Shown here: positions 3,001-6,000 of the stretch, in pieces
Layout: each line of letters begins with the position of its first letter
Position numbering within the stretch: position 1 is the stretch's first letter
Source: Acidimicrobiia bacterium
Lineage (GTDB): Bacteria; Actinomycetota; Acidimicrobiia; Spongiisociales; CAZKJJ01
NCBI GenBank assembly: GCA_046759765.1
Contig: JBHICV010000006.1
Location: 1-37,729 of the forward strand
Direction: 5' to 3'
DNA length: 37,729 nt
Made by a program: the position numbers

Positions 3001-6000
3001 GACCAGGCCCTAGCTGACCTGCGAGAGGAGCTAGACCCAGGTCTAGACGTTGATCTTCTGCCCCAGATTCGGGCGTACGCCTCCGAGCTTGACGAGGCGG
3101 CAGCTCCGTTTGAGGAGCTACGCCCGCGCCTTCCGGTCCTGGTCGAGGCTCGCCGGCCGGCCGGACCGTCCGGCCGGTGGGCGCTTGCGATTACCGCCGT
3201 CGTCATCGTCCTTGGAGTGGTTGCCGCCGTCGCCTTGATGCTCGAGTTCCAATAGCCGAGCACATCGATCACGAGACGACGCTGGCCTTATTGTGAGCTG
3301 TGACGAGGGGAGTCCGAATGCATAACGTAGACACGTCTGCGATCGCCGCGTCGGCTGAAGCGGCACCCTCTGATCCGAGCGAAGCCGAGCTAGCCGTTCA
3401 TCTGGAAGGCACCTGGAACGTGGATGCGAGCGAGGTTCAGTTCCAAGGAGACATCGACTTTCCGGAAGGACAAGTCACGCTCACCGCCGACTTTCCTCCT
3501 TTTCTTGGTGGCCGGGGCCGAGCACCGACACCGTTGGCCTATTGCTTCTACGGCGCCATGTGCTGCTACGGATCCACCTTCGCCACCCAGGCGGCTATGG
3601 CCGGGGTCCCCATCGAGGCGGACAATCGCGCTAGATCTCGGAGTCGATTTCCGTGCCGCGCTCGCTGTCGAGCAGGTCACCCCGCTATCCGAGTTTCGAT
3701 TCGAAGTCGAGATCCGTACCTCCGCCTCAGACGAGCAGGTTGCCGAAGTGAAGCGCCTGACCGACGAGCGATGCCCCGCTATCTGGGCGATGGACAACCC
3801 GGTGCCCTATTCGACGGTGGCGCGGAAGGTTGACTGATCCAATGGTGAGTCCCGCTAGACCAACGCTCCTTTACTCCGGGGGGTGAAAGTTCTGTCGAGG
3901 GGCGGCAAGGTTTGCAGCCCGCTTGGACACCGGCGAGGGGCTCGCCTTCGTCCCACTCGCCGATGACTTGGTACGGGACCTCCTGCCCGATATGACCGAG
4001 GAGAAGGCGCGCCAACATTGGCACCTGGTCATGCCTGATGGCTCGGATCTGGTCAAGGGCGAGGCCGGGATCACGCTGCTGGAGCTGCTGCCGCTGACGC
4101 GGTGGCTCGGCCATGTTCTCCGAGCGCTGAAGCTCCATCCGATCGTGGATGCCATCGACTGGTCGCTGGGTAAAGCTCGAACCAAGCTGGGCTGGTCGGC
4201 TGCGGATCTCCCTGGCCCCGAGCGGTATCCGTGACGGGGCGGTTGCACTAACGAACGTTCGTTCGTAACATGTCTTCTATGCAGACATGGCCCTCTCTCG
4301 CGGACTTCGAGGCGTTTCTCGACGCCGGGGGGATCGTGGAACCCGTCGACGAGATGCCGGATGAGTACCGGGATGAAGTGTTCCGGTTCATGGAGATGCA
4401 CGCCAACTCGGAGCTCATGGGCGGGCTCACTGAGCGGGACTTCATCCCGCGGGCTCCCGGCCTGCACCGCAAGCTGGCCACCCTCTCCAAGACCCAGGAC
4501 GAGATCGGTCATGCTCACCTCATCTACATGGTGGCGGCCGACCTCGGTATCAAGACCCGGGACGAGATGCTGGAAGATCTATACGAAGGGCGAACTCGCT
4601 TTCACAACGTCTTTCACTATCGCTGTGAGACCTGGGCCGACCAGGTCGCCATCGCTTACCTGGTCGACGCCGCCGCGCTGACCACCCAGCAGGCCGTTTT
4701 CAAGAAGTGTTCCTACGGCCCCTACAAGAGGATCCTTCGCCGGGTGATCGCCGAAGAGGGTTTCCATATGCGCCACGGCGAGGAGATGCTCCTCAGCCTG
4801 GCCTACGGCACCGCCCGCCAGCACCGGATGTTCCAGGAGGCGCTCGACCGCTGGTGGGAGCCGGTCATGCATTTCTTCGGGCCGCCGACCGCGAAAGACG
4901 ACAAGCTGCTCCGGTGGCACATCAAGTCAGAGCCCGCCGAGTCACTCCGCCATCGCTACGTACAGAAGTTCGTCCCGCTCTTGCTTGAGTACGGCTTCGA
5001 GGTTCCCGATCCCGATCTTCACTATGACGAGGCCGAACGCAGGTGGGTCATCGGCGAGATCGACTGGACCGCACTCAAGAAAACTCAGCAGAATGTCGGA
5101 CCCGACAGCGCCCGACGCATCGCTACCGCCCGGTCCGGGTGGGTCGACGCGGCCTGGGCCCGCCAGGCGCTCGACGCCGCCGCCGAGAGGCTGGCCGCAT
5201 GACAGTTGCAGCACCGACGCTGCTCGATCGGGTTCACACTGCGGTCGCCTCCGTTTGCGATCCCGAGTTTCCCAACGTCACCATCTCCCAGCTCGGAATC
5301 CTGGAGGACGTGAGTGCCTCAGACGACGGCCGGGTCGTGGTCGAACTTGTTCCCACCTTCCTAGGTTGCCCGGCCCTGGACATCATCGAGGCCGATGTTC
5401 GTAACGCAGCCGAGTCGGTTACGGGTGTTTCCGATGTCGAGGTGCGTTTCATGTCGGATCATGTGTGGACTCCCGATCGCATCTTGCCCGAGGGCCGCCG
5501 CAACCTGGCTGAGCTGACCATCGCGGTTCGCGACGACTCCCACGTCGCACTCTGCCCGGTATGCGGATCGAAGCATGTGGTGGAGAGATCCCCGTTCGGG
5601 CCAACGGCCTGCCGGGCCATTGCCTTTTGCGAGAACTGCCGGAACGCGGTGGAGGTGATCCGGCAGTGACGACGAACGCACGCACTCGCAAAGAAGACGT
5701 CGTCCGTGCCGCCGGCCGGCTCTTCGCCGAGCGCGGCTTCCACGGCACTTCCATGCGGGATCTCGGCACCGAGCTGGGCCTGGAGGGATCTTCGCTCTAC
5801 TCACACATAGACGGCAAGAACGAGCTGCTGGTCGAGGTGATAACGCGCGGCGCGGCGATGTTTCAGGGCCTTGCCGACGCGGTTCTGGCGACAGACGACT
5901 CTCCCGAGCGCCAGTTGCGAGCCCTCATCGTCGGCCACGTACAGATCGTCGTTGACCACCTCGACGAGGCCCGGACGTTTCTGAACGAGGCCCGCTTCTT

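Follow-up and report, generated by a model that had tools for sequence, protein, structure and literature searches.

A DCC1-like (PF04134) gene of an Acidimicrobiia bacterium with an in-frame TGA that is probably read as selenocysteine

Gene layout and reading frame

The window, that is, the whole stretch of 37,729 nucleotides analyzed from an Acidimicrobiia bacterium (contig JBHICV010000006.1), contains on its forward strand a candidate gene for a DCC1-like selenoprotein directly behind an OsmC-like gene. The features of this locus are as follows.

3510..3837, + strand: 5′ neighbor, an OsmC-like gene split over two frames and ending 4 nt before the ATG (Pfam OsmC)
3824..3829, + strand: GGAAGG, a putative Shine–Dalgarno-like sequence 12 nt before the ATG (read off the sequence)
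3842..4234, + strand: candidate DCC1-like selenoprotein gene, 130 aa plus stop (translation with TGA as U; PF04134, 44.6 bits)
3884..3886, + strand: in-frame TGA, residue 15, first position of the putative UxxC motif (TGA/Cys column conservation in relatives)
3893..3895, + strand: TGT codon of Cys18, the second redox residue of UxxC (conserved in 43 of the 44 Sec forms aligned)
3923..4234, + strand: shortened gene call of 103 aa, starting at a TTG 3′ of the TGA (ORF list; Pfam, 20.1 bits)
4232..4234, + strand: terminal TGA, taken as the stop (homology ends at ...RYP)

Translation of the window gave a single frame running from the ATG at 3842 through the motif GG-U-KF-C to the stop TGA at 4232–4234, with no further internal stop or frameshift besides the in-frame TGA. 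The first-pass annotation had described the same layout of ATG, in-frame TGA, redox motif, 130 residues, and stop, and each element was reproduced. The end of homology at ...RYP was common to the window, two orthologs from the same order, and most metagenome relatives. The in-frame TGA was seen in contigs of runs X1–X4, and it is not an assembly slip, since it is identical in the assembled contigs of X3 and X4, which are other samples of one study.

The OsmC-like gene matched its profile at positions 1–36 in the frame of 3300 and at positions 40–97 in the frame of 3424, and the contigs of X1–X3 showed no indel here. It was considered as a second selenoprotein gene and rejected, because a frameshift, not a TGA, joins its halves.

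Family assignment and predicted fold

With the TGA read through, residues 9–105 matched positions 1–99 of the 113 positions of the Pfam DCC1-like profile (PF04134, the family formerly named DUF393) with 44.6 bits (cut-off, 27.8), the values that had been claimed earlier. The same profile matched 43 of the 44 aligned relatives with TGA at this column (Sec forms) and was the sole Pfam family matched by the 44. The segment U15-K-F-C18 aligned with the C-x-x-C of 95 of the 96 full-length homologs among the best 150 of 770 profile matches. As judged from this alignment, an N-terminal CxxC-type redox motif is present after the first strand, with Sec apparently taking the place of the first Cys.

In the AlphaFold2 model (pLDDT 83.6, pTM 0.77), residue 15 lay at the junction of strand 1 and helix 1, the position of the redox residue in CxxC thioredoxin folds, and the order of the secondary structure elements of the model, b1-a1-b2-a-b3-b4-a, was thioredoxin-like. 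Foldseek returned no match to this model at E ≤ 0.001. The best VIA-align hit had a Z score of 5.6 (1nhy_A; rmsd 2.9; 72 aligned residues), below Z 8, and the top rows were nearly all thioredoxin or GST-N folds at similarly weak scores (Z < 8). A sequence search of the PDB found no relative with a solved structure.

The candidate shares its Pfam family, length, and predicted secondary-structure order with the Cys-type DCC1-like/DUF393 oxidoreductases (P0002–P0004), and the motif R-P-x-L-[LI]-[YF]-x-x-x-[C/U]-x-F-C-R is common to both forms. They differ in the codon for the first redox residue, TGY in the Cys type but TGA in the candidate, where a better-kept hairpin follows.

Gene callers take the TGA as a true stop, both here, where the shortened call is also found in the protein collection as P0152 (103 aa), and in 53 of the best 150 of the 770 representatives. 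Under this interpretation, the product would be a 103-aa DCC-like protein translated from TTG 3923 without the redox motif, and the 14 codons before the TGA would be a short upstream ORF or untranslated. However, the ORF behind the TGA (3923–4231) scored only 20.1 bits on PF04134, below the cut-off, and its product would start midway through helix 1 of the modelled structure, with strand 1 missing.

The TGA column in relatives

We searched 401 Spongiisociales genomes, including that of the window. Orthologs were found in four of the 400 others (35–47% identity), and each of these had a single in-frame TGA at the column of the window TGA, in agreement with the earlier claim. A start codon lay 14–17 codons 5′ of the TGA in all five genomes of the order. 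The search also gave three further weak matches, which had a CxxC and no stop. One ortholog, L020, has Phe in place of Cys18 and a divergent C-terminus.

The profile search yielded 770 matches at E ≤ 0.001, the number given previously. Among the best 150 of these, 96 covered the Sec column, 53 started after it, and one was of another kind. Cys occupied the Sec column, with a second Cys at +3, in 95 of the 96 full-length homologs, and the remaining one, representative P0025, had Trp. Thus, the two groups described in the first-pass annotation, full-length homologs with Cys at this column and others beginning only behind it, were both recovered.

A motif scan of metagenome DNA detected 76 loci, of which 51 had a homologous ORF of ≥100 aa after the TGA (44 unique). 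The corresponding scan of species genomes detected 34 loci, 24 of them with a homologous ORF of this length after the TGA; the 21 new ones were labelled as Gemmatimonadota (13), Actinomycetota (6), Anaerolineaceae (1), and Vicinamibacteria (1). An intact ORF of 115–116 codons was present in the 44 unique metagenome genes and the 24 species genomes, across four labelled phyla. For comparison, 35 Cys-form loci were obtained as DNA. A DNA pattern that included the hairpin found nothing in species genomes beyond the four known orthologs, and one with a Cys codon at the Sec column found 19 stretches, none of them a relative. The Sec-form alignment without its N-terminus offered no stretch conserved enough for DNA searching.

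The neighbors of the 44 metagenome loci included no conserved partner, only sulfur and redox genes at scattered loci. A rhodanese gene occurred at three loci and a metallo-beta-lactamase gene at two, and genes for 1-Cys peroxiredoxin, SBP56, DUF899, and MOSC occurred at one each.

These relatives bear on whether the gene is a pseudogene that arose through a nonsense mutation. Decay is seen nearby, in that a frameshift divides the OsmC-like gene just 5′ of the candidate, and several relatives are visibly broken, namely L020 and the copies that end soon after the TGA (L030/L070, L050, L081, L151, L156, and L171). Against this, the 44 unique metagenome genes and 24 species genomes all share a single TGA at this one catalytic column, keep their ORF, and show purifying selection both 5′ and 3′ of the TGA, and the window copy has no other lesion. 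A pseudogene is therefore strongly disfavored, and we regard it as the least probable of the readings considered here.

Coding signature around the TGA

Because the motif used for scanning metagenomes and species genomes contained the TGA, codons −6 to +4, which lie within it, are conserved by construction. We therefore examined the codons outside the motif. The amino acids encoded by codons −11 to −7 were conserved, Arg at −9 occurring in 45 of 45 sequences, and the diversity of these codons was approximately 0.6 at third positions versus 0.0–0.4 at positions 1 and 2. Upstream of codon −12, all three codon positions were equally variable. In the ORF 3′ of the TGA, diversity was unequal across codon positions, that is, without a neutral pattern. 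By these substitution patterns, a coding signature and purifying selection are evident on both sides of the UGA.

This result weighs against a true stop, and so do the 5′ codons in that they lie in frame with the TGA and align with the N-terminus of the Cys homologs. In addition, TTG 3923 is not conserved as a start, and the shortened calls among the best 150 matches start at 23 different profile positions. A true stop accordingly appears very improbable, slightly more so than the decoding as a standard amino acid discussed below.

A SECIS-like hairpin behind the TGA

Two nested structures were predicted in the RNA downstream of the TGA.

3901..3919, + strand: SECIS-like hairpin core, stem +18..+24 / +30..+36, loop AGGUU at 3908–3912 (6 of 7 pairs)
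3893..3929, + strand: extended hairpin enclosing the core, lower stem UGUCGAG / CUUGGACA (RNAfold)

The stem arms of the core are 3901–3907 and 3913–3919, with one G-A mismatch in the window; the stem begins 14 nt and the loop 21 nt after the UGA. A hairpin approximately 15 nt after the UGA with the loop GGUCU/AGGUU had been reported in the first pass; the loop of the window was indeed AGGUU, and three of the orthologs had GGUCU. Six or seven of the seven stem pairs formed in 49 of 49 Sec forms versus 17 of 35 Cys forms (mean of the latter, 5.2 of 7). The pairs, a G[G/U] loop, and a folding energy of ≤ −7.5 kcal/mol occurred jointly in 47/49 Sec forms versus 7/35 Cys forms.

Among 46 distinct sequences, 96% of the cells were paired, and pair 24–30 was changed from G-C to A-U in eight. 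Only this one of the seven pairs showed a both-sided (compensatory) change, and covariation is thus thin. Diversity at third codon positions of the Sec forms was 0.23 in the hairpin versus 0.55 3′ of it; the corresponding values for the Cys forms were 0.51 and 0.52. Synonymous-site suppression at the hairpin is, by this comparison of sequences, confined to the Sec forms. Conservation of the stem is partly protein-level, because the stem encodes the conserved A-A-R-x-V-A. The overall folding energy of +10..+46 was alike in Sec (−14.9) and Cys forms (−14.3).

In the published model of the bacterial SECIS (bSECIS), the loop has 3–9 nt, the upper stem 4–16 bp, and the spacing between UGA and loop 16–37 nt; one of the first two loop positions is a G with G or U after it, and the MFE is ≤ −7.5 (consensus of Zhang and Gladyshev, 2005, as summarized in PMC13188914). 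The candidate shares with this consensus its 5-nt loop, upper stem of 6–7 bp, 21-nt spacing, and G-G/U loop, as well as the energy in 47 of 49 relatives. It differs in that the 19-nt core of the window has an energy of −6.5 kcal/mol, among the weakest and one of the two of 49 Sec forms that miss −7.5, so that the window passes this energy only via the extended lower stem (−17.4 kcal/mol over 48 nt). This extended fold had a z score of −1.03, with 34 of 200 shuffled sequences equally stable. Taken alone, the window hairpin is not significant, a point that a true stop can claim in its favor. Across the Sec forms, the hairpin fits the bSECIS model and is a candidate SelB-binding element. The sole match in an Rfam search of window positions 3700–4300 (E ≤ 10) was to a snoRNA and is ascribed to chance.

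Selenocysteine machinery

SelA (416 bits), SelB (338 bits), and SelD (390 bits) were all found above their cut-offs in the window genome, as had been asserted. SelA and SelB had no internal stops, and SelD had an in-frame TGA of its own (Sec-containing). A complete tRNA-Sec gene was not found in this assembly (92% complete, 308 contigs). The last 17 nt of contig C114 (8223–8239) were identical to the first 17 nt of the tRNA-SeC confirmed by aragorn in a genome of the same family (G002), which bears out the earlier placement of the tRNA-Sec start at this site, where the contig end apparently cuts the gene. In the ortholog genomes, SelB was present in four of four and tRNA-SeC with anticodon TCA in three of four. 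RF01852 alone was given little weight, because 5 of 14 well-known genomes scored over the cut-off in its control.

SelB presence did not tell Sec-form genomes from Cys-form ones and was rejected as a marker for this purpose, since SelB exceeded the cut-off in 15 of the 21 new Sec-form genomes versus 27 of the 35 Cys-form genomes. In three Sec-form MAGs (G406, G413, and G414; possibly incomplete), none of SelB, SelA, and tRNA-Sec was found. Both observations, together with the single Trp at the column in P0025, would be compatible with decoding of the UGA as Trp, Cys, or Gly through near-cognate read-through or a suppressor tRNA. However, TGA is the ordinary stop of the candidate gene and of its 5′ neighbor, SelA and SelB of the window genome are uninterrupted, and the TGA forms have a hairpin of their own that would suit SelB binding. 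Moreover, Trp or Gly in place of the nucleophilic Cys of CxxC would destroy the redox site, whereas Sec would keep it. We consider such decoding very unlikely.

The UGA column, the Cys homologs, the 5′ coding signature, the hairpin, and the Sec machinery support the selenocysteine interpretation put forward in the first-pass annotation. On this sequence evidence, the in-frame TGA at 3884–3886 is very probably read as selenocysteine within a UxxC motif.

Discussion

The gene product would be a 130-residue DCC1-like thioredoxin-fold protein with Sec as its first active-site residue (U15-K-F-C18). SelB carrying Sec-tRNA(Sec) would bind the hairpin inside the coding sequence and deliver Sec to the UGA at 3884–3886, and the second TGA at 4232, without such a hairpin, would lead to termination. 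The protein would function in thiol/selenol-disulfide oxidoreduction: a selenolate exposed at the N-terminal end of helix 1 would attack a substrate disulfide or an oxidized thiol, the mixed selenenylsulfide would be resolved by Cys18, and the internal Se-S bond would then be re-reduced by some reductant. We infer the Sec insertion, the catalytic cycle, and the involvement of a substrate and reductant alike. We know of no bacterial DCC1-like member with a known substrate. According to the review PMC6603150, Arabidopsis DCC1, a relative of the Cys type, is a functional thioredoxin affecting complex I and mitochondrial ROS.

Catalogued UxxC selenoproteins with a thioredoxin fold comprise Sec-thioredoxin, Sec-glutaredoxin, DsbA-like and Prx-like proteins, and a thiol:disulfide interchange protein (PMC13188914, Table 1). 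The candidate resembles these in that a presumed Sec stands where helix 1 begins, in place of the first, nucleophilic Cys of CxxC, in that most homologs have Cys, and in that a putative SECIS follows the UGA directly within the coding region, but it belongs to another Pfam family, PF04134. The 2026 review lists 119 prokaryotic selenoprotein families or subfamilies (PMC13188914), and its whole Table 1 contains no PF04134, DUF393, or DCC entry. The 44 Sec forms matched none of 18950 NCBIfam models, including the NF04xxxx selenoprotein models, at E ≤ 0.01, and the family was unmentioned in the selenoprotein survey texts and supplements and the full-text literature searched, a comparison that does not extend to the family lists of Haft and Tolstoy (2025) or of Deng et al. 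(2026). The absence from the 2026 inventory claimed earlier thus holds for Table 1, NCBIfam, and the surveys examined, and we regard the candidate DCC1-like selenoprotein form as new to these models and catalogues.

In the tree, Sec and Cys forms interleave, with at least three forced changes of state, and one genome (G410) encodes one Sec form and one Cys form together. DCC1-like proteins may therefore constitute a widespread uncatalogued selenoprotein family, labelled as Gemmatimonadota, Actinomycetota, Chloroflexota, and Acidobacteriota, that switched several times between Cys and Sec, eased by a latent, protein-imposed SECIS; we offer this as a tentative proposal that falls somewhat short of probable. 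The conserved A-A-R-x-V-A following the redox motif is encoded by the nearly self-complementary GCG GCG ... GTC GCC, and repeated switching would likely be attributable to this coding string already forming most of the SECIS-like hairpin in the Cys forms. With such a latent SECIS in place, a single TGY-to-TGA change would face a lower barrier, a notion supported by the stem pairs that Cys forms make on average (5.2 of 7) and by the seven of 35 that show all hairpin features.

If the selenocysteine reading is true, PF04134 would join the list of prokaryotic selenoproteins. It would also explain a systematic annotation error, in which 53 of the best 150 representatives are N-terminally shortened and left without the active site because the TGA there is not read. 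The contrast between Sec and Cys forms would provide a small natural test case for the origin of a SECIS inside a coding sequence. The soil clade appears abundant, with 44 unique genes in one scan. Finally, the Sec form would single out the residue that opens the DCC motif as the nucleophile in catalysis, giving a functional handle on the bacterial members of this family.

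Gene structure and family assignment

The DCC1-like selenoprotein candidate gene lay in the following setting.

Features around the DCC1-like gene
2593-3255: sigma-70 region-4 protein, upstream of the DCC gene
3510-3837, + strand: OsmC-like gene with its halves in different frames, adjoining the DCC gene upstream
3842-4234, + strand: DCC1-like selenoprotein candidate gene, ATG 3842 to end TGA 4232-4234, one frame, 130 residues with read-through
3901-3919, + strand: SECIS-like hairpin (+18 to +36, U of UGA = +1), 7-bp stem, 5-nt loop
4270-7253, + strand: phenylacetyl-CoA epoxidase cluster, beginning 35 nt past the DCC stop

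Codon 15 of the DCC frame was an in-frame TGA (3884-3886, +), the sole one ahead of the end TGA. GGAAGG was located 12 nt 5′ of ATG 3842, and the stop of the upstream gene 4 nt before it. The read-through product scored 44.6 bits against Pfam DCC1-like (PF04134; cut-off 27.8), with residues 9-105 corresponding to profile positions 1-99, and the TGA replaced the first Cys of the PF04134 CxxC motif, giving GG-U-KF-C. The gene thus belongs to family PF04134; its frame and score bore out the first-pass annotation, which had described a 130-residue DCC1-like protein with this in-frame TGA. That annotation had also stated that the gene caller took only the part behind the TGA, and the called ORF indeed ran from TTG 3923 to 4231 (103 aa) and scored 20.1 bits, under the cut-off. 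The protein collection carried only this truncated product, as P0152.

The gene sequence with the TGA was also found in contigs assembled from four public DNA runs (X1-X4, one study); the present assembly may derive from X1 and X2, which are not independent support. Record 10 of X3 spanned 3319-4110 gap-free with one synonymous-position difference, and record 16 of X4 spanned 3865-4291 with zero differences.

Conservation of the TGA in relatives

Among 401 genomes of the order, the source genome included, orthologs were found in four others (35-47% identity), each with exactly one in-frame TGA at the same column, which reproduced the earlier report of four such orthologs in 400 genomes (4/4). 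Three further weak matches were ordinary CxxC forms. One ortholog, L020 (G002:C490, gene 1025-1438, − strand), had U-RF-F, with Phe for the resolving Cys, and diverged over its C-terminal 40 residues in the manner of a frameshifted protein; this copy is either decaying or poorly assembled.

A degenerate DNA motif covering codons −6 to +4 around the TGA was run on metagenomes and species-representative genomes. The metagenome collection yielded 76 motif loci, 69 of which matched the profile of the five genome-derived proteins, partly by construction for short fragments. Behind the TGA, 51 of the 76 (44 unique) had a homologous, stop-terminated ORF of 100 codons or more, and seven loci were unrelated chance matches. 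In L030/L070, L050, L081, L151, L156, and L171, the frame behind the TGA ended at 14-63 codons or had a deletion (breaking off at 14-30 codons in L030/L070, L050, and L081); these are broken copies or assembly errors in a family otherwise intact. L059 diverged eight codons behind the TGA.

The species-representative genomes contained 34 motif loci; in 24 of them, including three orthologs already found, the ORF reached 100 codons or more. By label, the 21 new loci belonged to Gemmatimonadota (13), Actinomycetota (6; Gaiellales, Solirubrobacteraceae, and unclassified), Anaerolineaceae (1), and Vicinamibacteria (1), the last depending on genome G419, which is flagged unpublished, as is G401; such MAG labels are fallible, one ortholog contig being titled Gammaproteobacteria with its genome placed in the Acidimicrobiia order.

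The search motif dictated codons −6 to +4, which are uninformative here, and left codons −11 to −7 unconstrained. The latter encoded L-P-R-P-V in 45 unique sequences, with Arg−9 invariant; their third positions had a nucleotide diversity of 0.47-0.66, and their first and second positions mostly one of <0.45. At codon −12 and upstream, the three positions were equally variable, and amino-acid identity fell to about 0.3. This difference indicates that translation begins in frame some 11-17 codons before the TGA; ATG, GTG, or TTG was present at 11-17 codons 5′ of the TGA in all five genomes.

Cys homologs and probable Sec/Cys alternation

The profile of the five proteins matched 770 of 1.84 billion representatives at E ≤ 0.001, the same number as in the first pass, and the best 150 of these were inspected. 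The Sec column was covered in 96 of the 150, with Cys in 95 and Trp in one, and all 95 Cys-bearing homologs had a second Cys three residues further on. Another 53 started at most four residues from their own N-terminus at a profile position past the Sec column, the pattern expected of a gene caller behind an unread TGA, and one fell in neither class. Among these best 150, the earlier statements that full-length hits have Cys at this column and that the others begin past it were therefore confirmed. The Trp-bearing representative P0025 (LLFDGG-W-PFC) is near-identical to P0064, which has Cys; its Trp may reflect either a TGA that a gene caller translated with a different code or a real TGG.

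Sec and Cys states interleaved in a quick maximum-likelihood tree (44 TGA forms, 55 Cys forms, 131 columns), many forks of which were unresolved. Parsimony gave six Sec/Cys changes, at least three of them forced by well-supported branches, and the protein of the present gene belonged to a starred group comprising 10 Sec rows and 3 Cys rows. In the Gaiellaceae MAG G410, a Cys form and a TGA form of the DCC subfamily occurred together (L118 and L158).

SECIS-like hairpin

We compared the hairpin among 49 Sec forms, namely 55 unique segments minus non-homologs (L042 and L063) and broken loci (L030, L050, L059, and L081).

Apical loops in the 49 Sec forms
CGGGU: 21/49
AGGGU: 12/49
AGGUU (window included): 4/49
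AGUUU: 4/49
GGUCU: 3/49
CGUGU: 3/49
other loops: 2/49

The stem started at +18 and both loops named in the first pass, GGUCU and AGGUU, were found, as claimed for a hairpin shortly after the UGA. [quoted passage not shown] The family hairpin fits this consensus, with a spacing here of 21 nt.

As a control, we used 35 close Cys-form loci, mostly from Gaiellaceae and other Actinomycetota, plus Chloroflexota and Gemmatimonadota. All seven pairs were formed in 35/49 Sec forms versus 4/35 Cys forms, and six of seven in 14/49 versus 13/35 (mean 6.7, n = 49, versus 5.2, n = 35); pairs, loop, and energy taken together selected 47/49 versus 7/35. Third-position diversity in the hairpin codons (+5 to +11) was 0.23 in Sec forms and 0.51 in Cys forms, whereas in codons +12 to +21 it was 0.55 and 0.52, which points to RNA-level selection in Sec forms only. 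The stem also codes for the conserved A-A-R-x-V-A, which limits the hairpin evidence. Only one of seven pairs changed on both sides (G-C to A-U, 8/46 distinct sequences), with 96% of cells paired, and the overall folding energy of +10 to +46 was alike (−14.9 in Sec forms versus −14.3 in Cys forms). The window hairpin was among the weakest (G-A mismatch, core energy −6.5), and its 48-nt fold had −17.4 kcal/mol (z = −1.03 versus shuffles). No Rfam family matched the hairpin region.

Selenocysteine machinery

SelA, SelB, and SelD, claimed earlier for the source genome, were borne out with 416, 338, and 390 bits, respectively. SelD (C108:6375-7298, − strand; locus L007) is a selenoprotein in its own right, with an in-frame TGA (HGAG-U-ACK) and a GUC-loop hairpin about 33 nt 3′ of the UGA; this hairpin is compatible with the Sec reading of the DCC gene and proves nothing. 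A complete tRNA-Sec gene was not found in the assembly (92% complete, 308 contigs). The end of contig C114 (8223-8239), where the gene had been said to start, was identical over 17 nt to the beginning of tRNA-SeC (anticodon TCA by aragorn) of G002, a genome of the same family. Judging from this identity, the contig stops inside a putative tRNA-Sec gene, only the first 17 nt of which were assembled.

SelB was found in 4/4 ortholog genomes and tRNA-Sec above the Rfam threshold in 3/4. Among the new Sec-form species genomes, SelB exceeded the cut-off in 15/21; G409 had SelA, tRNA-Sec, and a SelB fragment at a contig end, G419 and G420 had an RF01852 match only, and none of SelA, SelB, and tRNA-Sec was found in the MAGs G406, G413, and G414. 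SelB also occurred in 27/35 Cys-form control genomes, so the machinery is widespread in these lineages and fails to separate the two forms. It is a necessary condition for the Sec reading and is mostly present in TGA-form genomes.

Genomic neighbourhood

In the OsmC-like gene, the frame of 3300 covered profile positions 1-36 (about 3510-3617), and the frame of 3424 covered positions 40-97 (3643-3810). No indel was present here in the X1-X3 contigs, so the split is a real frameshift or pseudogene in the population or an error common to the assemblies. The paa gene order was unusual (paaA, paaD-like, TetR regulator, paaB, paaC); the paaD-like gene (5043-5669) overlapped the paaA end in another frame, and the TetR-family regulator gene (5561-6244) lay inside the cluster. 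Within the 35 nt that separate the DCC stop from paaA was a perfect 14-nt palindrome, AACGAACGTTCGTT (4250-4263), a candidate operator of this regulator. Relatives did not share the DCC neighbourhood: in the regions flanking 44 metagenome loci, sulfur and redox genes occurred only here and there, and no partner was common to the loci.

Predicted fold and mechanism

An AlphaFold2 model (44-sequence alignment; pLDDT 83.6, pTM 0.77) contained strand 8-11, helix 16-28, strand 35-38, short helices, strands 61-63 and 69-71, and then helices up to residue 117. In this model, the element order is thioredoxin-like, and residue 15 is at the N-terminal end of helix 1, the predicted site corresponding to the nucleophile position of CxxC oxidoreductases. 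Foldseek gave no match at E ≤ 0.001, and sequence search yielded no solved structure of a relative. The best VIA-align hit was weak (1nhy_A, a GST-like domain; Z 5.6, rmsd 2.9, 72 aligned), and nearly all chains ranked below it were GST-N, CLIC, PDI, thioredoxin, or glutaredoxin; these searches agree weakly, in kind, with a thioredoxin-like fold of the model. By analogy with UxxC selenoproteins, the selenolate would attack a disulfide or oxidised thiol, Cys18 would resolve the selenenylsulfide formed, and an external reductant would recycle the protein. Arabidopsis DCC1, a characterised family member, is described in the review PMC6603150 as a functional thioredoxin affecting complex I and mitochondrial ROS.

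A probable selenoprotein family absent from the inventories searched

The family would work in the manner of the UxxC thioredoxin-fold selenoproteins already catalogued, but it falls within none of these. No NCBIfam model matched any of 44 Sec forms, and PF04134, DUF393, and DCC were absent from Table 1 (119 families) of the 2026 review (PMC13188914), as the first-pass annotation had claimed. No PF04134, DUF393, DCC, or COG3011 occurred in the main texts and accessible supplements of three surveys, namely GOS (PMC2398784), Peng et al. 2016 (PMC5029168), and deep-Sep (PMC12013277), and the family U-motif strings were absent from the accessible supplements of GOS and deep-Sep. Full-text searches, which did not reach subscription journals, Haft and Tolstoy 2025, or Deng et al. 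2026, yielded nothing relevant on a DCC1-like selenoprotein.

The conserved column, the Cys homologs, the coding signature, the hairpin, and the machinery support the original claim that TGA 3884-3886 is read as selenocysteine, which we consider very probable and well supported. DCC1-like proteins would be one more widespread family of predicted thioredoxin-like fold with Sec/Cys alternation, the putative Sec forms of which are systematically truncated by annotation.
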